From Escherichia phage ECML-134: a DNA stretch of 64,000 bases. Where the stretch lies: the sequence record JX128259; one strand, 5' to 3'. The notes under the pieces were generated by a model. The model saw nothing but the letters and a program-made list of their open reading frames with translations. It did no database searches and had not been told where the DNA came from. Of this stretch, positions 6,163-36,091 are shown in pieces (position 1 is the stretch's first letter; each line of letters begins with the position of its first letter). The position numbers and the translations under genes are program-made.

Positions 6163-6705
6163 TTAATTCAAAATAGCTACCACTGCACTACGAGGTACTA
6201 CGCTAAAATCACCTGCATGAACAACGTTCAGAAGTTCAACACCATCTTCAATCCACTGGTCTGTTACCCAACCACAGACCGAAACAAATGGTGTCTTGAT
6301 AGCTACAGCACGAGTTAGAAGGTCAGTAGGGTCTTGTTCTTCAACTTCTTGGAACAGGATGAACTCATCTTCATAAACCAGGTTTTTCTTTATTTTGTTA
6401 TTATCTAACCGGCGACCGTGGATGACGTAAGATTTGTCAAACCACTCACTTTTGGCAAATTCTTCAACAATAAATTCGCCTTCGCCAAAAACATCAGTCA
6501 GAGTTTTATGACCGGAAATCAAGGCATTAGTTTTAATTTTAGGTTCAACCAGTTTGTAGGTTTTGCCGATTTCAATAGCGGTAGTCATAGTAGGTTCCTT
6601 AATTTCCAGTGGTTTAACAGGGCATACATAAGTGCTTACAACATCAAAATCAATCAGTTTAGCTACCGGATTCGATATGTATTCAGGATTATAATTAAAT
6701 TTCAT
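6163..6705 (-). CDS. hypothetical protein, paralog of motB-like ORF
   Basis: 180-aa ORF; C-terminal CGWVTDQWIEDGVELLNVV matches CGYITDQWVEDGVKLYNVV of 5598-6086. Confidence 0.6.
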   Translation of the reverse strand: MKFNYNPEYISNPVAKLIDFDVVSTYVCPVKPLEIKEPTMTTAIEIGKTYKLVEPKIKTNALISGHKTLTDVFGEGEFIVEEFAKSEWFDKSYVIHGRRLDNNKIKKNLVYEDEFILFQEVEEQDPTDLLTRAVAIKTPFVSVCGWVTDQWIEDGVELLNVVHAGDFSVVPRSAVVAILN

Positions 6706-18756: not shown

Positions 18757-20183
18757 TAAAATTTTAATTCATTCGCCAAAGCATCTAACTGAGCTCGAGT
18801 GGATTCATTTCTTTGATAGCGATTCTGCTCAGCCTGAATCTGTTGTGAACCTGCTACTTCGTTCACTTCAGTTGGAGTAGAATCTTGTTCAATTTCTACC
18901 CATTTCTGATTTCCTTTTTGAACACCCATCAAAAACTTATTCCACTTATTCTTATCACCATATCGTGATTTGATTTGCTTAATGAGTTGTTGTTCAGCAG
19001 CTGCTAGCTCCTCGGTTTCAATGACCGCAAGCATAAAATCGGCTGTTGCTGGAAGACCGGCAGATTCTGCAATATCGCTCATGTTAACATCGGAAGAGTC
19101 CCAAGCTTGTTTACCAACCTGTGCTGCAGTCCAAAGAACAGTTTCGGTTTCAACAGCCAAAGCACGCAATTCCTCTGCAATAGCTTTAACAGTTGTGTAA
19201 CTATTTTCTGAATAAACTCTGATGCGGCAAGATTTACAAATACCTAGATAGTCGACAATAATGATTGTTGGAACAAAATTCTTTTTGAGCTTCAATTCGT
19301 TTAAAAGTGATCGAAATGTATTAGCATCTGCTCCGCCAGTAGGATACTGTTTAACGATTAAACGACCGAGAGTAGATTTCTCACGCCATTTTTCCATTTT
19401 TCCTTTATACTCAGCGTAAGAAATATGCCCATCATCAATGTCATCAAGAGAAACATCAAGCATATTAGCATCAATACGTTTAGCACAGACTTCTTCTGCC
19501 ATTTCCATGGAAATGTAAAGAACATTATGTCCGAGCTGCAAATAATCTGCTGCCAATGAACACAATCCTAATGACTTACCAACGTTAACGCCAGCCATTA
19601 AAACGTTCAGTGTTCCAGTCTCAGCTCCGCCTTTAGTAATTTTGTTTAGAATTCTGAGTTTAAATGGAACCTTACGAGCTTTATTCATATAAGATAGCCA
19701 ACGTGCTTCGTAGTCATCCATCCAATCATGACCAACGTAGCTATCAAATGAAATAGATAATGCTTGGCGCATGATGTCAGGAATAGCACCAACGTCCGGC
19801 ATTTTCTTATTTCGTTTTTCCGGAGGAAGCTCAGCATTAGTTTGAATTTCGATTATTTTAGACGTAGCATTAAACATCGCCCTTTGCTGAACATATTTTT
19901 CTGTTTCTTTTATTAACCAACTGTGGTCTTCTGGAGAATCAGCTAGTTTTGAAATAAGTGTTTTTACACCAGAATATTCTGTTTCAGTAAATGAACTATT
20001 TTCTAATGCAACATTTAACGCATTAATAGATGGAACGCTATGATACTCATTAACATGAGATTTAATTAATTTGAATGTATTTTTAGCTGGACCACTTTCA
20101 AAATATTCTGAATCCATATATGGCCAAACTTTTGAAAAATAAGCTTGATCAAATATGAGATGAGAAAGAATAATTTCTACCAC
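18756..20183 (-). CDS. 41: replicative DNA helicase
   Basis: 475-aa ORF, T4 gp41 length; DnaB-family P-loop GVNVGKS. Confidence 0.9.
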   Translation of the reverse strand: MVEIILSHLIFDQAYFSKVWPYMDSEYFESGPAKNTFKLIKSHVNEYHSVPSINALNVALENSSFTETEYSGVKTLISKLADSPEDHSWLIKETEKYVQQRAMFNATSKIIEIQTNAELPPEKRNKKMPDVGAIPDIMRQALSISFDSYVGHDWMDDYEARWLSYMNKARKVPFKLRILNKITKGGAETGTLNVLMAGVNVGKSLGLCSLAADYLQLGHNVLYISMEMAEEVCAKRIDANMLDVSLDDIDDGHISYAEYKGKMEKWREKSTLGRLIVKQYPTGGADANTFRSLLNELKLKKNFVPTIIIVDYLGICKSCRIRVYSENSYTTVKAIAEELRALAVETETVLWTAAQVGKQAWDSSDVNMSDIAESAGLPATADFMLAVIETEELAAAEQQLIKQIKSRYGDKNKWNKFLMGVQKGNQKWVEIEQDSTPTEVNEVAGSQQIQAEQNRYQRNESTRAQLDALANELKF

Positions 20184-20192
20184 ACTTACTCC

Positions 20193-20555
20193 TTAAAAGA
20201 ATTTAAATTTTTTCTTTGACCTTTTATTAAATGCATCTTGTAGTTGCATTGTAATACATTTTTCTACATGAGGAGCTAACTCAGCTTTTCTTTCTTGGTC
20301 AAGAACAGCAAAGTCCATTACGACTTTTCCATCAACCCAATCTAATTTTGTCACATACACAATGTGTGTAGAACCATCTTCTAGTTTAATGACAATCTCC
20401 TGGATAACATTTTCCATGGCAGATTTAATTATCTTAAGAGACTCATTAAAAAGACGTTCTTTTCTTTCTTCTTCCCCCTCCGAAGAGGGGGATTCATCGA
20501 TAATTTCTAGATCTAAATCTAAATCATCTTTATTCATTAAATTCTTCCATATCAC
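20193..20555 (-). CDS. 40: gp40-like head assembly protein
   Basis: 120-aa ORF between uvsX and 41, as in T4. Confidence 0.6.
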   Translation of the reverse strand: MIWKNLMNKDDLDLDLEIIDESPSSEGEEERKERLFNESLKIIKSAMENVIQEIVIKLEDGSTHIVYVTKLDWVDGKVVMDFAVLDQERKAELAPHVEKCITMQLQDAFNKRSKKKFKFF

Positions 20556-21711
20556 TTAACTGTTCGAGGTCAGTTTCTAAATCAGCAGCTGATTTACTTT
20601 TACTTTCTGGAGATTTAAATTTTTCAACCTTTGAGTTAATCAATTCATCGACTTCAGCCTCAACAATTTCATTACTATCAATAGCACCTAACTGATAAGC
20701 ACGTTTAATAGCATCTCGGAATGGTTGATGCTTAAATAAAGGACCCCAGAATGTAGTGCAGTTTGTATCTTTTGCACGCCAAGATTTTTCTTCGCGAATC
20801 ATCTCGCCGGTTTCTTCGTCAAGAAATTCACGAGCATACCAACCATTCTTAGGTTTTACTACAAATCCTAATTCTAGAGCCATATCTAACAATCCAGAAT
20901 AAGGATCGATACCACCGTCAAATTTAACATCAATAAAGAATTTACTTTTTTCTTTAACGGTACGAGATTTTTCTACATTTAGAACAAATTGATACCCCTG
21001 AAGATCAGAACCATCTTTAATCTGACGCTTACCGATAATGAATACTGTATCAGCCGAATACATTACGCCTGTACCACCTGTCATCACGGTTTTACTAAAC
21101 ATTTCAATGGTTTCAATTGTATGGTTAACCGCAACACATGGAATATTTTTAATGCTAAAATAAGGAGTAACAATACGGAATAATGACTTCAGTGATTTAG
21201 CACGAGTCATATCTGCCACAGATTTTTCATTCAAGGCATCTTCCGTTTCTTTCTTGGAAGCCATATTACCAATTGAGTCGATGAATACAATAACCTTTTC
21301 ACCACGCTCAATAGCTTCAAGCTGATTCACCATATCAATTTTCAGCTGTTCAACTGACTGGATTGGCGTATGAATTACTCGTTCCGGGTCAACTCCCATG
21401 GATCGCAAATAAGCTGGAGTAATACCAAATTCGCTATCATAGAATAGACAAACTGCGTCAGGATATTTGTTCAAATATGCCGCAACCATAGTCAAAGACA
21501 TATTTGATTTAAAGTGTTTAGAAGGCCCTGCGAAAATAGTTAAACCAGACTGCATACCGCCATCAATCGCACCAGAAATAGCAATATTAAGCATTGGGAT
21601 TTTTGTACGGATTACATCCTTTTCATTAAAGAATTTAGATGTAGTCAGTTCAGCAGTCATTTTAGAAGTGGAAGCTTTAATCAAACGGGATTTTAAATCT
21701 GCAATAGACAT
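20530..21711 (-). CDS. uvsX: UvsX recombinase
   Basis: 393-aa RecA-like ORF. Confidence 0.9.
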   Translation of the reverse strand: MSIADLKSRLIKASTSKMTAELTTSKFFNEKDVIRTKIPMLNIAISGAIDGGMQSGLTIFAGPSKHFKSNMSLTMVAAYLNKYPDAVCLFYDSEFGITPAYLRSMGVDPERVIHTPIQSVEQLKIDMVNQLEAIERGEKVIVFIDSIGNMASKKETEDALNEKSVADMTRAKSLKSLFRIVTPYFSIKNIPCVAVNHTIETIEMFSKTVMTGGTGVMYSADTVFIIGKRQIKDGSDLQGYQFVLNVEKSRTVKEKSKFFIDVKFDGGIDPYSGLLDMALELGFVVKPKNGWYAREFLDEETGEMIREEKSWRAKDTNCTTFWGPLFKHQPFRDAIKRAYQLGAIDSNEIVEAEVDELINSKVEKFKSPESKSKSAADLETDLEQLSDMEEFNE

Positions 21712-21788
21712 TCATTTTTTCCATAGGCATCATTATATTTTCCTCACTGGTTAAAGATAGAGTAATTATAACACAATAAATTTAGGCA

Positions 21789-22637
21789 TTAATCAACTGC
21801 TATTGGATGAATAGCATTAAACTTATGAAATGCTTCTGATTTTTCTTTACGCGAAACACACATGCGAAGAACCTTTAATGGTTCATCTTCTTCACCCAAC
21901 GATTTTCGTTTTTCAATATTCGATGTTTTCCAACGAGCTTGCTCTGGAAACTCTCTATTGATTTGCTCAAGCGCTCTATTATGTTTAGAATTACTGCGAA
22001 TTGAACTACATCCGCCAGGAGCTTGTGCTTTTCCAGATACAACCAGATATTTGAACAAGGCCAAATGCGGATAACCTTGATTAATTAAATTGAGAAATGC
22101 ATACATATCTTCGCATAAATCAATTTTTCCATACCCAATTTGTTCTGTCGTAAGTTTTCCGAGGTCATACCATGTATTCGTGAATCCATATGAATTTTCA
22201 CGATAATTACCCCAAGATGAAGTAATTTTAAAAATAGGTAGACGAGCATGGCCATGATAATACCCGCAATCCATGGCATCCTCAACATATTGAATCAATT
22301 CATAGAACTGTTCACGGGTCAATTGATTGACTTTATCCACACAACGGCGATCATCTCTTTTTCGCATTGAACTCATACGAATAGTAGTATCATCGTCAAT
22401 CATCCAGATTCGTTGACCTGCATACATATCAGTAATTGCTTTACGAGTACCGGCAATTCCGTTTACATCATCAGGAATAGTTATAATTTTAGCTCTAGAC
22501 CCATAGGCATCATAATAAGCTTTTTCTTCATGTTCACGCACTACAATATGCGGTTCATAATCAGTCGGAAACATATCAAGGGCAGAAACTGCCCCGACAC
22601 GCTGATAACTTGGAATTACGAATTGAATCATTTCCAC
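21789..22637 (-). CDS. glycosyltransferase, GT-A-like, at the beta-gt position
   Basis: 282-aa ORF; N-terminal VIPSYQR and IWMIDDD (DxD-like) motifs; does not resemble recalled 351-aa T4 beta-gt. Confidence 0.6.
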   Translation of the reverse strand: MEMIQFVIPSYQRVGAVSALDMFPTDYEPHIVVREHEEKAYYDAYGSRAKIITIPDDVNGIAGTRKAITDMYAGQRIWMIDDDTTIRMSSMRKRDDRRCVDKVNQLTREQFYELIQYVEDAMDCGYYHGHARLPIFKITSSWGNYRENSYGFTNTWYDLGKLTTEQIGYGKIDLCEDMYAFLNLINQGYPHLALFKYLVVSGKAQAPGGCSSIRSNSKHNRALEQINREFPEQARWKTSNIEKRKSLGEEDEPLKVLRMCVSRKEKSEAFHKFNAIHPIAVD

Positions 22638-23368
22638 TCACCGTTATAATCTTTTTTCACAATATGAGTTTCGCCAGTATTCCACCAATGATCAACCAAG
22701 TAAAAATGACGAGAATATACATGAAGACTTCCAACATTCCATATAATAGAACCTGCTTTATACTGACGAGTTGAATCACCTGCATTCAAATCAGATACTA
22801 ATTTATCTAATACGTATTTTTGCCATGCATAATCATTACGGAATCCGAAGACCACGTCATTTGAGCGCATGCTTACTACTGCATTGACTTTCTTATCACG
22901 AATCAGGTACTGTACTGTATTAGTACACATGAAATCTGACATACCATCTTTATTGTAGTCAAATTGCATGGATGGACGAGTATAAATCATGATACCACGT
23001 CGAGAATCAGGATTTTGACCAAGTTCAGCTAAACACATATCATACTGAGCATAGTTATCTTCTGACCAGATAGCCCAACCATAATTCGAGTTAATTTCGC
23101 CTTTAGAAGATGCTACTTGTTGCCAAATCTTTGGTGTTTCACCTGGAATATCTTTAACAAACAAGCTTTTAGATTTATACCATTCAAGTTCACGCTGAAT
23201 GTATTCATCATTAAGAGCGCCAAAAATAAACGGTTCATCTGCTACAAATGATGCGCCAATAATTTCAATAGTTTTAACACCAGTTTTATCAACTACGAAA
23301 TCTTTTTCTTTTAATGCAAGCCCCAAACGAAGACGGATTTCTTCAACTGTCATAGAGTCACTAATCAT
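22628..23368 (-). CDS. 42: dCMP hydroxymethylase
   Basis: 246-aa ORF, T4 gp42 length; thymidylate-synthase-like. Confidence 0.9.
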   Translation of the reverse strand: MISDSMTVEEIRLRLGLALKEKDFVVDKTGVKTIEIIGASFVADEPFIFGALNDEYIQRELEWYKSKSLFVKDIPGETPKIWQQVASSKGEINSNYGWAIWSEDNYAQYDMCLAELGQNPDSRRGIMIYTRPSMQFDYNKDGMSDFMCTNTVQYLIRDKKVNAVVSMRSNDVVFGFRNDYAWQKYVLDKLVSDLNAGDSTRQYKAGSIIWNVGSLHVYSRHFYLVDHWWNTGETHIVKKDYNGEWK

Positions 23369-23521
23369 TTAAACCTCAATTGATACATTCATATTTAACT
23401 TGTAACAGTAATAAACTCCAACCTAAAATAATAGTTGGAATCATAAGAGGAACCGTTACACTATAGTATATACTTATTATAATCATCAAGATTAAAAGCA
23501 ATGCTGCTATAATTTTGCTTT

Positions 23522-23773
23522 TCATTCCTTCTCTCTGATGATAATTACTTGATTTGGTTGTGCAGACTTTTTAGTTTCACCCGCAATTGACCAAATAAAT
23601 GTAATAAACCAACCAATAATTGACCAGTTAAACAGTAAAGATGTGAAAAAGATTCCTACTGTCGATTTTGACCCACGCATCAAGGCGATAAACCATGGAA
23701 GCATGTATATAATAATAGCCAACACACCTGAAACTAAAACCATAAAAATTGAACCTGCTACTAAAGTTTCCAT
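23522..23773 (-). CDS. imm: Imm superinfection immunity membrane protein
   Basis: 83-aa ORF, T4 Imm length; two hydrophobic segments. Confidence 0.8.
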   Translation of the reverse strand: METLVAGSIFMVLVSGVLAIIIYMLPWFIALMRGSKSTVGIFFTSLLFNWSIIGWFITFIWSIAGETKKSAQPNQVIIIREKE

Positions 23774-23780
23774 CTTTTCC

Positions 23781-24173
23781 TCACTTAGTCAAATTTTTTA
23801 CGCATGAATTATAAGAATTCACTACATACTCCATTGGAGCATTTTTACCAGTACGCAACTGGTAATTATTAGCCCAATTTGCCCAAAGCACGGCGCAGTA
23901 ATTTTCAATTTTTTCTTCGCGTGTAATTACATCCGAATTACGATATGCTTGAGCAGATTCATTTGGACGAATAGCTTCGTCAAAATTCGCCTGCATTTGT
24001 TCTACTGTTTGCTTTGGAGCTTCTTTATAACACTTGATATTAGGATTATAAAATTTGCTTGAACAGTTTACAATTTTTCCTGCATCAGACTGATTTACTA
24101 CCGGTCCTTGAGCTACACAACCAGTAAGACCTAATGCAATAACCAAAATAGCGATTTTCATTTGATTCTCCAA
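23781..24173 (-). CDS. putative lipoprotein
   Basis: 130-aa ORF; signal peptide with lipobox LTGC; GGAG Shine-Dalgarno. Confidence 0.6.
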   Translation of the reverse strand: MENQMKIAILVIALGLTGCVAQGPVVNQSDAGKIVNCSSKFYNPNIKCYKEAPKQTVEQMQANFDEAIRPNESAQAYRNSDVITREEKIENYCAVLWANWANNYQLRTGKNAPMEYVVNSYNSCVKNLTK

Positions 24174-24195
24174 ATCCGTATTAGTTGATAGTTGT

Positions 24196-24225
24196 ATAGT
24201 ACCATGGAAGAACAGAGATGTAAAC
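24196..24225 (-). promoter_or_regulatory. early sigma70-type promoter
   Basis: gtaaac at 24220-24225; -10 TACTAT; member of the near-identical promoter family with 49702, 51624, 55213. Confidence 0.55.
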
Positions 24226-24311
24226 AGTTTTGTGAAAAATTTTTAGGGAATTCTAAAGGTCCAGAATCATCTATTTTTCCTAAGAATTGATTTATATTAC
24301 TTGTATGAAAA

Positions 24312-24329
24312 AGGGACCCGGAGGTCCCT
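24312..24329 (-). terminator. stem-loop downstream of gene 43
   Basis: agggacc-cgga-ggtccct; 7 bp stem. Confidence 0.5.
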
Positions 24330-24341
24330 AGATTTATTCTA

Positions 24342-27038
24342 TCAGCCAAACAGGAAGTCTAACGAAGCTTTTTCTTCATAGTCCATACCAGCCGATTCAC
24401 ACATACCCGCAAGCGGTTTAACAAACGATTTTTGGAACAAAGTTGAGTAGTCAATCCAAGACAGTACATCAGAACGAATTTCTTTTGGAAGTTCTGTGCC
24501 CGACGGCCAAGCAATACACTTGTCACCAAATGGATTTCCCTCACGTAATGGAAGAACCATTACCTTATTTCCATCCAAAATTGGAGCTACACCCAGACCA
24601 CTAACAGCTCGACGATAAGTTAGCACCCCACGAATGTGGAACGGGCATTTAAATCCTGGCCAACCTTTATCGTCATATTTCGCTATATCGTTCGCGGTTT
24701 TTACTTCAGCAATAACTTTATAGTCAAGTTGACGATATTCTTTCTCAAAGTTCTTATAGTATTCTTGGACAGACTCTTCGCCTTCCTGAAGAATACGACG
24801 AATACTTTCTTCGAGAGCTTCTTGCACTGCTTTTGGTGTTGAACTCTGTTGAGTTTCCATACCCATGATTTTTAAATGCGGTTCAGCAAATCGCTTATCT
24901 TCCATATCATAAACGTTCAGAGCATAACGTTTTTTCGCTTTCCAAAATCCACCAACACCCTTTGAACCGAGCGGAGGGCAAGAAATAGCTTCACGGTCCA
25001 TATGCATCAGATGCTCGCGGTTATTCATATAATCACATAACTCACGATATGCAACATCAATCATAGGTTCCATCTTTTTCTTACCGAACTGATTCATAAA
25101 TTCAACCAAATCGTTCTGCTCTTTGAATCGGTCAAGACCTACTTTTTCAATAACTTTATCTACGCAAACATATACCGAATCAGTATCACCTGCTGCGATG
25201 AAATCTTCACCATTAGTTCCGCATACTTTATTCAGATATTCATTAATTTTACGAGCAATCCACTGAATACCAACTTGGCCGAAAATTGTGATAGCAGTAG
25301 CATTTCGCAAATCATAGTAACGGAAATGAATATTACCAAGAGCACCATAAAGACTGTTAATGAGAATTTTACGGTTCAGCTGATTTGTATTAGCAAGTGT
25401 AGCCGCTTTTTCACATTCCTCAATCAGACTATTGAGAACAGATTCAGTATAATTCGATAGTTCATTTAAGAAATCATCACTGAACTTAACATATCGTTCA
25501 ACTTCAGGTTTAGTTGAACAAGACCCTGCGCCTTTCATAATAATCTTTTTAATAGCTTCGGCATTCATTTCTTCAGCGAACATTTTCTTTTTCCAATCTT
25601 TACGCTGGAAAAATACTTTAGCGATTTCCTTTGGAATGATACCTTCTTGATGCTTATCATACATCCATCCATTCGGAGAACAAGAATATTCATCACTCGG
25701 TTTAGGAGCTGTTCCTGCAATATATTCATGAATTGGATGAACTTTAAACTGCCCACGAATAGTCTCAGGACTAATGTTAACCTGACGAATAATGCTCGGA
25801 TACAGAGACGTCAAGTCAAAACTCATAATATATCGACGAGCAATTGGTTTAGGTTCAAATACAAATGCACCCGGAAAACTTTGTTTAACGTGCGAACCTT
25901 GTTGAGGAATAACCTTATGTTCACCTTTCAATGAGTTAAAAATAATAGCATCCCAAGTTTTAATAGGACTCATTACACCGGAAAAAGGCATTTTAGCGTA
26001 ATAAGACATACTTAAAACTAGATCGATAAACCCGCGAATTTTATCAATTGCTTGAACTGATTCTACGTCAATGATGTTATAACTAATGTATCGTTGATGA
26101 TTAGTCTCACGAAGTTTATTAATAGGGCCATCATATGGTAATTTACCTTTTTTGGTTTCATGTTGAGCAACTGATTCCAAAGAGAATGACGGCAAATTAG
26201 TAAAAGCGAATTTCTTGTACAAATCTAAATAATCAAGAATAGATACGCCATCAATAGAATAAATTTCTTTGCTACCGTACATATTTTGAATTAGTTTAGA
26301 TTTTACTCGACCGATTGGAGAGAAACGTTTCATACTGCGTTCACCTAGAATCATTTTAACACGATTCATGATATACGGAACGTCAAACCCCTCAATATTC
26401 CAACCAGTAAAAATAGCAGGTCGTTTCTGTTCCCAGAGATTGATATATTCCATGAGCATATCACGCTCATTATCGAATGGCATATAAATTACTCGGTCAA
26501 GAATTTCTTGAGGAACTTCATCACCACCTTCACAGTCAAGCTTAGCAGCTAACTTTGCATCCCATTTTGATACTGAACCGTACATTGAATTCAAAAGGTC
26601 GAAAACATAAAAACGATCATCAATTGAATCGTAATGAGTGATAGCATCAATTTCATATTCAGCTTTCATTGGGTCAGGAAATTTATCACCAGTAACCTCA
26701 ATGTCACAGTTAGCTACACGAACAAATTTTCGGTCATAAACAATTTCTGAACCGTATGTATCACTGATATAAGCGAGTTTAAAATCGTTCATACCGAGAG
26801 CTTCGAGACCGATGTCTTCCATTCGCTTCATCCAATCTCGAGCATCTTTCATTGATGGAAATTTTTGAGGAGCGCAGTTTTTACCATAGATGTCTTTGTA
26901 TTTTGACTCTTCCTTACAATGCCTAAACATAGTTGGAAGATATTCTACTTCACGAGTACGTTCCTTTCCATTTTCATCAATATAACGTTCAACAATGTTA
27001 TTTCCGACTGTTTCAATAGAGATATAAAATTCTTTCAT
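24342..27038 (-). CDS. 43: DNA polymerase
   Basis: 898-aa family B polymerase, T4 gp43 length; exonuclease FDIE and polymerase DTDS motifs. Confidence 0.95.
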   Translation of the reverse strand: MKEFYISIETVGNNIVERYIDENGKERTREVEYLPTMFRHCKEESKYKDIYGKNCAPQKFPSMKDARDWMKRMEDIGLEALGMNDFKLAYISDTYGSEIVYDRKFVRVANCDIEVTGDKFPDPMKAEYEIDAITHYDSIDDRFYVFDLLNSMYGSVSKWDAKLAAKLDCEGGDEVPQEILDRVIYMPFDNERDMLMEYINLWEQKRPAIFTGWNIEGFDVPYIMNRVKMILGERSMKRFSPIGRVKSKLIQNMYGSKEIYSIDGVSILDYLDLYKKFAFTNLPSFSLESVAQHETKKGKLPYDGPINKLRETNHQRYISYNIIDVESVQAIDKIRGFIDLVLSMSYYAKMPFSGVMSPIKTWDAIIFNSLKGEHKVIPQQGSHVKQSFPGAFVFEPKPIARRYIMSFDLTSLYPSIIRQVNISPETIRGQFKVHPIHEYIAGTAPKPSDEYSCSPNGWMYDKHQEGIIPKEIAKVFFQRKDWKKKMFAEEMNAEAIKKIIMKGAGSCSTKPEVERYVKFSDDFLNELSNYTESVLNSLIEECEKAATLANTNQLNRKILINSLYGALGNIHFRYYDLRNATAITIFGQVGIQWIARKINEYLNKVCGTNGEDFIAAGDTDSVYVCVDKVIEKVGLDRFKEQNDLVEFMNQFGKKKMEPMIDVAYRELCDYMNNREHLMHMDREAISCPPLGSKGVGGFWKAKKRYALNVYDMEDKRFAEPHLKIMGMETQQSSTPKAVQEALEESIRRILQEGEESVQEYYKNFEKEYRQLDYKVIAEVKTANDIAKYDDKGWPGFKCPFHIRGVLTYRRAVSGLGVAPILDGNKVMVLPLREGNPFGDKCIAWPSGTELPKEIRSDVLSWIDYSTLFQKSFVKPLAGMCESAGMDYEEKASLDFLFG

Positions 27039-34872: not shown

Positions 34873-34890
34873 AAAGGGCCGAAGCCCTTT
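34873..34890 (-). terminator. stem-loop at alpha-gt 3' end, UUCG tetraloop on transcript
   Basis: aaagggc-cgaa-gcccttt; overlaps alpha-gt stop codon. Confidence 0.5.
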
Positions 34891-36091
34891 ATTTTGTAAT
34901 AATGTCAAACTGTTCTTTAAAGCAGAAGCTTGAATCTTGATGCTGATACAAAAATTCATATGCTTTTTCTCGCTCACGGTCATAAAGAGCTCGGTCAGAT
35001 GACAGTTCTTTAATACGCTCGAATGTTGATTCCATGTCATTTTCATCAAACCAAATGATACCGCTATCATGCGAGGTCAAAGGAGTATTATCAACACGGA
35101 ATTTTAAATTTTCGCCAGTAGATTTCCAAAATACCGGAATTGTTCCACAAGCACCAAGCTCGAGATGAGTATATTCTAAAGAACGTTGTAGATATTTTTT
35201 GTCCAACTTACTCAACTGATAACCAAATCCGGATTTACTCATGCGTTCAAGCATTTCGCTATTTACATAACGGTCAAGAATTTGCGTTGGCAAATTAGGA
35301 GCAATTTTAATTTGGTCTACTTGATGAAGACGATAATACTCATATGGAATTCCTTTTTCTTTAATAGGAATGAACGCTGGAGAACGTTCCAGACCTTCCA
35401 TAATAGTACTTAGTCCTGCAGGTTTAAGATGTTTTTCGTGAAAATCAAACATCTGATAAAAGCCTTTCCATGTAGTAGTACGACCAATCCAACGGTTGAT
35501 ATTCATGTTAATTTCAGAAACATCTTTCCAGTAGGTTGATCTAACCTTCGCAATATCCATAGGAGGCTGAAAGTTATATACTGTCGGCGCTTCTTCAATA
35601 TCATCAAACAAAGAAACTGTTTCAGGATACCATTCTTTCATCAGAACTTTATTAAAATCGCCATTATCAGAATGACTAAAAATAACATCAGCTCGACGAA
35701 CAGTTTCTTCTAATCCCAAATTTCGACGCAAAGAAAGAGAAGAATGGTCATGTTGATAAACTACAACACGAACCGAAGGTTTAATGTTATCAATAATTTT
35801 TTTATAGTTATTAATAGTGTCTTCTTCAACTGAAGTAGCAGGAACTGAATTGATAATTAGAATATCACAATCATTTACCAGCTTAAGTGTTTTATCGTAT
35901 TCTTTTGCCAATAAAACCGGAATTGAAAATGATTTATAATCATGCGCACAGTTACGAGTAAATGATTTATCTTTAGCATAAACCAAAGTTACTTCATGAC
36001 CATTTTTAATAAACCAATCACGCTGCTCAAGAGAAAATTTAGTTACACCGCAACCTTCAAGACCTCGAGCCATAAAAATACATACTTTCAT
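34889..36091 (-). CDS. a-gt: DNA alpha-glucosyltransferase
   Basis: 400-aa ORF MKVCIFMARGLEGCGVTKFSLEQRDWFIKNGHEV..., closely matching recalled T4 alpha-gt. Confidence 0.85.
   Translation of the reverse strand: MKVCIFMARGLEGCGVTKFSLEQRDWFIKNGHEVTLVYAKDKSFTRNCAHDYKSFSIPVLLAKEYDKTLKLVNDCDILIINSVPATSVEEDTINNYKKIIDNIKPSVRVVVYQHDHSSLSLRRNLGLEETVRRADVIFSHSDNGDFNKVLMKEWYPETVSLFDDIEEAPTVYNFQPPMDIAKVRSTYWKDVSEINMNINRWIGRTTTWKGFYQMFDFHEKHLKPAGLSTIMEGLERSPAFIPIKEKGIPYEYYRLHQVDQIKIAPNLPTQILDRYVNSEMLERMSKSGFGYQLSKLDKKYLQRSLEYTHLELGACGTIPVFWKSTGENLKFRVDNTPLTSHDSGIIWFDENDMESTFERIKELSSDRALYDREREKAYEFLYQHQDSSFCFKEQFDIITK

Follow-up and report, generated by a model that had tools for sequence, protein, structure and literature searches.

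The stretch of DNA that was analysed (64 kb, referred to here as the window) carries, between uvsX and gene 42, an uninterrupted minus-strand ORF that runs from a GTG at 22637 to a stop at 21789, and which counts 282 amino acids in the ORF listing of the window. An earlier reading, made from the sequence only, had placed a 282-aa ORF at this position; the location and the intact frame hold, but probably not the length. An ATG at 22631, two codons inside the GTG ORF, shares the sequence ATGA with the stop codon of gene 42 (as in T2), a Shine-Dalgarno-like GGTGA lies 6 nt upstream of it, and the homologous ATG is the annotated start in the records of T2 and of phage Solly. Because of this overlap, spacing and annotation, translation likely starts at the ATG, which gives a product of 280 amino acids (Table 1). 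The gene is referred to below as ba-gt (beta-glucosyl-HMC-alpha-glucosyltransferase), and residues are numbered from the ATG.

Table 1 Coordinates of the features in and around ba-gt (window positions)
Feature	Position	Strand	Remarks
uvsX (flanking landmark)	20530..21711	-	Pfam T4_UVSX_C, E 5e-39, and RecA
Segment without T4 homology	21700..22645		946 bp; T4 counterpart 1,941 bp (segA + beta-gt)
ba-gt / TAGT (beta-glucosyl-HMC-alpha-glucosyltransferase)	21789..22631	-	280 aa; ATG overlaps gene 42 stop
E174-D175 codons ('ED' motif)	22107..22112	-	D175 in 89/89, E174 in 73/89 members
D79-D80-D81 codons (DxD motif)	22389..22397	-	Aligns with AvpGT LDDDD
Arg11 codon	22599..22601	-	89/89 members; loop after strand beta-1 (I-P-S-Y-Q-R)
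Gene 42, dCMP hydroxymethylase	22628..23368	-	Pfam Thymidylat_synt, E 1e-15
alpha-gt, DNA alpha-glucosyltransferase	34889..36091	-	Pfam AGT PF11440, E 1.8e-237

The order uvsX / ba-gt / gene 42 is the same as in T2 and T6. Gene 42 is 96.5% identical to T4 gene 42 at the DNA level, and the T2 and T6 records annotate it as dCMP hydroxymethylase. The alpha-gt that had been named earlier is confirmed by its Pfam match, and its protein is 100% identical to that of Solly, with 2 differences from T2 and 33 from T6. Within the 64-kb window, alpha-gt and gene 42 are present and a beta-gt is absent. Antisense ORFs inside ba-gt (e.g. 22413..22649 and 21862..22074, both on the plus strand) were rejected, being mechanical ORFs of an AT-rich coding region that have no support.

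A few smaller features surround the gene. Just past its stop and upstream of uvsX lies TGCCTAAATTTATTGTGTTATAAT (21765-21788, minus strand), with a MotA-box-like TGCyTAA and a TATAAT about 12 nt further on, which we take to resemble the layout of a T4 middle promoter. Inside codons 13-21 of ba-gt there is a hairpin rich in G+C with a T-rich tail behind it (GGGGCAGTTTCTGCCCT TGATATGTTT, 22579-22595, minus strand), which both T2 and T6 have conserved. The numbers of promoters and terminators found by scanning around ba-gt did not exceed the shuffled expectation (14 vs 11.5 and 2 vs 1.0, respectively). Between gene 42 and imm, a strongly hydrophobic ORF of 49 amino acids (MKSKIIAALLLILMIIISIYY..., 23376-23525, minus strand) overlaps the start of imm; it is 100% identical in T4 (6228-6377, minus strand, of the T4 segment taken from NC_000866 20000-27000), and is called 'Phage protein' in Solly and EL while being unannotated in the T4, T2 and T6 records.

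Relationship to the T2/T6 enzymes and the TAGT family

In a profile search, residues 1-275 of the protein match PHROG 842 ('beta-glucosyl-HMC-alpha-glucosyltransferase') with an E-value of 6.4e-89. The match to the Pfam family PF20691 (TAGT, TET-associated glycosyltransferase) covers positions 2-205 of the 205 in the profile and, at 38.9 bits (E 1.2e-9), lies above the cut-off of 27.5. An NCBIfam scan of the protein matched no family. It is identical to the T2 enzyme at 278 of 280 positions (Arg11 and Pro251 here, His11 and Ser251 in T2), and to the T6 enzyme at 277 of 280 when lesions specific to the individual T6 records are set aside, with Tyr40, Asp55 and Arg106 here being Asn, Gly and His in T6 (i.e. 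Y40N, D55G and R106H). The earlier suggestion of a T2/T6-type, second-glucose-adding enzyme is borne out by these matches. As in T2 and T6, the product has 280 amino acids, the gene occupies the slot between gene 42 and uvsX, and its partner is an alpha-gt. The T2 and T6 genes were reportedly cloned by Winkler and Rueger, in a 1993 paper in Nucleic Acids Res. The T2 protein, with its 280 aa, was listed together with homologues from twelve RB phages by Thomas et al. 2018 (PMC6024577), who also give UniProt Q06717 and Q06718 as the T2 and T6 ba-gt (or ggt).

Identical copies of the protein occur in Solly and in many other phages. At the DNA level, Escherichia phage vB_EcoM_SCS4 matches the region with 99.7% identity, at coordinates that are also the same, and hundreds of Tequatrovirus genomes match it with 98-99%; in many of these the gene is annotated as a beta-glucosyl-HMC-alpha-glucosyltransferase. 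By tblastn, a homologue of ba-gt was found in 687 phage records (about 470 of them at an identity of at least 95%), and a T4-type b-gt in just 126, of which 29 reach an identity of at least 90%. This agrees with Ramirez-Chamorro et al. (NAR 2026, PMC13216743), according to whom the vast majority of phages that encode glucosyltransferases pair an alpha-GT or a beta-GT with a TAGT, T4 being the exception. The combination of alpha-GT and TAGT is thus not unusual, but rather what most T4-like phages have. Neither the gene nor its product or role is new, and the copy described here is an ordinary, intact one in its usual place.

The annotation of these genes is confused. The TAGT gene is called 'b-gt' in several records (e.g. 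RB3 KM606994, RB5 KM606995, AR1 AP011113 and T2 LC348380) and is a hypothetical gene in many others, a genuine T4-type b-gt is labelled 'beta-glucosyl-HMC-alpha-glucosyl-transferase' in RB55 (KM607002), and gene 42 is often named thymidylate synthase.

The TAGT family owes its name to members whose genes adjoin those of TET/JBP enzymes, and a kinship with the glucosyltransferase of kinetoplastid base J is likely. The protein shares with PF20691 the signature [IV]-P-[ST]-x-x-R ... R ... D-D-D ... E-D ... G-G-C-S-x-x-R. It differs in its context, however, as the hydroxymethyl group here comes from gp42, which acts at the nucleotide level and belongs to the thymidylate-synthase family, rather than from a TET/JBP dioxygenase, and as the acceptor here is a sugar that is already on the base.

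A different arrangement was observed in CC31 (NC_014662 22120-24020) and similar phages of Salmonella, Citrobacter, Enterobacter and Klebsiella, where a T4-like b-gt (about 49% identity) lies beside a TAGT homologue (about 65% identity) and where there is no alpha-gt. The TAGT of these phages presumably acts on beta-glucosyl-hmC. This pairing has been described before (PMC6024577, PMC13216743).

The same slot in T4

In T4 (NC_000866 20000-27000 was used for comparison), segA and a b-gt of 351 amino acids lie between uvsX and gene 42. A blastn comparison of window positions 20000-24500 with this region shows that T4 homology stops at 21699 and restarts at 22646, i.e. a clean cassette difference. 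The claim that the ORF does not resemble T4 beta-gt stands, since the best BLASTP segment between the two proteins spans 8 residues (E 2.2), which leaves no full-length alignment. T4 b-gt matches PF09198 with an E-value of 9.4e-98, and no match to this family was found for the ba-gt protein. When the 64-kb window was searched by tblastn with T4 beta-gt and SegA, no remnant of either was found anywhere in it, the best E-value for beta-gt being 1.5. The possibility of a divergent T4 beta-gt is ruled out by the BLASTP result, by the different Pfam family and by the fold, which is GT-A and not GT-B (see below).

What the two enzymes have in common is the slot between gene 42 and uvsX, the use of UDP-glucose, the formation of a beta bond (i.e. 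inversion) and the action on phage hmC DNA. They differ in fold, T4 beta-gt having the two-domain GT-B architecture (PDB 1JG7, per PMC13216743), and in acceptor, which is the hydroxymethyl group of hmC in T4 and the glucose of alpha-glucosyl-hmC here. The slot in T4 moreover holds the homing endonuclease gene segA.

Past the stop codon of b-gt and ahead of segA, the 3' end of a TAGT gene, stop codon included, survives in T4 as a relic of 25 nt (NC_000866 24238-24262), which is identical to window positions 21787-21811 at 24 of 25 nucleotides (E 3.9e-7). The retention of this relic suggests that the arrangement in T4 derives from a TAGT-bearing, T2/T6-like ancestor, in which b-gt replaced the body of the TAGT gene, and it thereby indicates in which direction this arrangement evolved.

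Predicted fold and active site

A PDB sequence search with the single protein gave no match, and a search with the family profile gave AvpGT (9jma) as its best match, at an E-value of 0.23 that is not significant on its own; a solved structure of a TAGT family member was not found in these searches. The fold was for this reason assessed with a predicted model, which was built from an alignment of ten homologues with the T2 sequence left out. The model (pTM 0.72, mean pLDDT 69.9) is very confident in the N-terminal nucleotide-binding half and falls below a pLDDT of 50 at residues 126-151 and 203-211 and in the C-terminal 20 residues, as a result of which the acceptor-binding part is ill-defined. 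As predicted, the protein has the GT-A (nucleotide-diphospho-sugar transferase) fold and not the two-domain GT-B fold.

Conservation within the family was derived from an exhaustive HMMER search (336 cluster representatives) and an alignment of 89 full-length, diverse TAGT members with identities of 19-65%. Only R11, D80, D175 and G207 are invariant throughout this alignment, while D79 (87/89), D81 (88/89), G206 (87/89), R212 (86/89), R63 and G186 are nearly so. The protein from the window has every one of these residues, as well as the less conserved E174. Position 251, where it has Pro, is not conserved across the wider family. The motifs VIPSYQR and IWMIDDD, which had been noted earlier as GT-A-like, are indeed present (V5-I-P-S-Y-Q-R11 and I75-W-M-I-D-D-D81), and in the (by itself non-significant) profile match IPSYQR and MIDDD align with IPTYNR and LDDDD of AvpGT, which is a GT2 enzyme.

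Based on general GT-A enzymology and on the analogy with GT2 enzymes, D79-D81 would constitute the DxD site for the metal and the UDP-diphosphate, and D175, which the predicted model places at the start of helix 174-184, is a candidate for the base that an inverting GT-A enzyme needs in catalysis. The reaction would then be a single-displacement inversion, from UDP-alpha-glucose to a beta-linked product. Identity to the inverting GT-A enzymes of GT2 type (AvpGT 9jma, TarP 6h1j, BcsA 9fmv and SpsA 1h7l) is only 10-16%, and ba-gt differs from these in that its acceptor is borne by DNA and in that it is small and soluble, with no membrane or polymerising module.

Predicted DNA chemistry and the T2 allele

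Taken together, it is very probable that ba-gt encodes a T2/T6-type glucosyltransferase, i.e. a UDP-glucose-dependent, inverting GT-A enzyme with a DxD motif that adds a second glucose, and that it takes part in a pathway that gives the phage T6-like DNA. In this pathway gp42 would make hydroxymethyl-dCMP, to be incorporated into the phage DNA, after which alpha-GT (a GT-B enzyme) would glucosylate a fraction of the hmC residues in alpha linkage. The product of ba-gt would then add a second glucose, through a beta-1,6 bond, onto alpha-glucosyl-hmC, yielding gentiobiosyl-hmC. Its role would be to mask alpha-glucosyl-hmC from host defences that are specific for modified DNA, such as the DNA glycosylase Brig1. 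In line with this, T6 lacking ba-gt contains alpha-glucosyl-hmC only, and both the phage and its DNA are more sensitive to Brig1 (PMC11078745).

Since the alpha-GT and the ba-gt product are each identical to their Solly counterparts, the composition of the virion DNA can be predicted from that phage, for which HPLC/MS gave about 1/3 5-hmdC, about 2/3 alpha-gentiobiosyl-mdC and a trace of alpha-glucosyl-mdC (PMC13390438). The virion DNA is thus predicted to be T6-like as well, with about 1/3 hmC, about 2/3 alpha-gentiobiosyl-hmC, little mono-alpha-glucosyl-hmC and no beta-glucosyl-hmC. The beta-glucosyl form was not detected by HPLC/MS in the Durham phages, which include Solly (PMC13390438), and the earlier expectation of a glucosylation pattern that differs from that of T4 is supported by this. 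The proportions are to be read with some care, as EL, BGP and Geo show 1:2:2 (PMC13390438); the ratio of mono- to diglucosylation thus differs among close relatives, which means that factors beyond the presence of the gene matter.

It could be argued that ba-gt, which after all sits in the slot of T4 beta-gt, is its functional stand-in and glucosylates bare hmC directly. There are many phages with a solitary TAGT homologue and neither an alpha- nor a beta-GT (PMC13216743), and their existence means that some members of the family may act on targets other than a glucosylated base. For the enzyme studied here such a primary role is nevertheless highly improbable: beta-glucosyl-mdC is absent from the phages that have the identical pair of enzymes, where an alpha bond joins the disaccharide to the base (PMC13390438), deletion of ba-gt leaves T6 with alpha-glucosyl-hmC only, and classical T2/T6 enzymology is that of a transfer onto alpha-glucosyl-hmC.

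Alternatively, ba-gt could be weakly active or inactive, as it apparently is in T2, in which case the DNA would be T2-like and mostly mono-alpha-glucosylated. The protein is closest to that of T2, the alpha-GT is of the T2 type too (with 2 differences in either case), T2 contains just ~5% gentiobiosyl-hmC (PMC6024577), and lesions in ba-gt do occur in laboratory T6 records. However, the ORF is intact with all conserved motifs in place, position 11 is Arg here (as in the entire alignment) and His in T2 alone, and Solly reaches about 2/3 gentiobiosyl-mdC with the identical TAGT and alpha-GT (PMC13390438), so that a poorly active enzyme is very unlikely too. That a sugar or linkage other than beta-1,6-glucose is transferred (these specificities not being readable from sequence, and arabinose being used by the related T4-like phages of Mosigvirus; PMC13390438, PMC6024577) can practically be dismissed, given that the protein is identical to that of Solly, whose disaccharide is gentiobiose (PMC13390438), and has an identity of at least 98.9% with its T2 and T6 counterparts, and that the arabinosylating phages have no homologues of ba-gt (PMC6024577).

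The T6 lesions differ between the two independent T6 genome records of the collection that was searched. In MH550421, codon 10 of ggt is TAG (amber), where the window and AP018814 have CAG and T2 has CAA; because of this stop, the annotated 'ggt' starts at Met20 and counts 261 amino acids, and it would be without the first beta-strand and Arg11. In AP018814 (= RefSeq NC_054907), GATGATGAT is shortened to GATGAT by a deletion of 3 nt in GAT GAT GAT, which leaves a protein of 279 amino acids with DD in place of the near-invariant DDD. Each record therefore holds a different potential lesion, which could be stock mutations (or drift) or sequencing errors. Neither the amber codon nor the Asp deletion is found in ba-gt of the window.

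Compared with Solly (and the window), T2 differs only by R11H and P251S in the TAGT and by two residues in the alpha-GT, while its gentiobiosyl-hmC amounts to ~5% (PMC6024577) vs ~66% in Solly (PMC13390438). Codon 11 of ggt in T2 (MH751506) specifies His, which none of the 89 diverse members has at this position. A tblastn search with the N-terminal 40 residues of T2 found the exact 40-mer, among 680 phage records, only in seven T2 records and in the T2-like SV76; pattern scans of IMG/VR gave 0 matches for His11 vs 5 for Arg11, which is too few to inform. Considering that R11 is invariant in the family and P251 is not, and that T2 is otherwise nearly identical to the gentiobiose-rich Solly, it is plausible that R11H is the single-residue cause of the low diglucosylation in T2. 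This would fit the observation, made in 1965, that hybrids of T2xT6 crosses inherit one of the two parental patterns, that of T2 or that of T6 (PMC2137963). No published statement of this idea was found in a search that was non-exhaustive.

More generally, the Arg11 allele found here (which is also that of Solly) may be the fully active wild type that leads to T6-like, gentiobiose-rich DNA, the classical difference of 5% in T2 vs 72% in T6 being due to a hypomorphic R11H in T2, so that the allele of the TAGT, rather than the type of alpha-GT, would set the ratio of mono- to diglucosylation in T-even phages. The chances of this broader proposal seem evenly balanced; the comparison of alleles with DNA chemistry covered Solly and EL. 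If true, a single residue would explain a quantitative difference between T2 and T6 DNA that has been known for 60 years.

As a discovery, the gene carries little weight, since knowledge of the gene, its product and its role goes back to the 1960s and the enzymology of T2 and T6, and all three were recently confirmed genetically (deletion of ba-gt in T6), structurally (the GT-A model) and chemically (the Durham phages). Its value is rather predictive: the phage should carry gentiobiosyl-hmC DNA, a modification that affects attack by restriction enzymes, CRISPR systems, type IV nucleases (GmrSD/BrxU) and DNA glycosylases (Brig1), as well as the behaviour of the DNA in sequencing and cloning.
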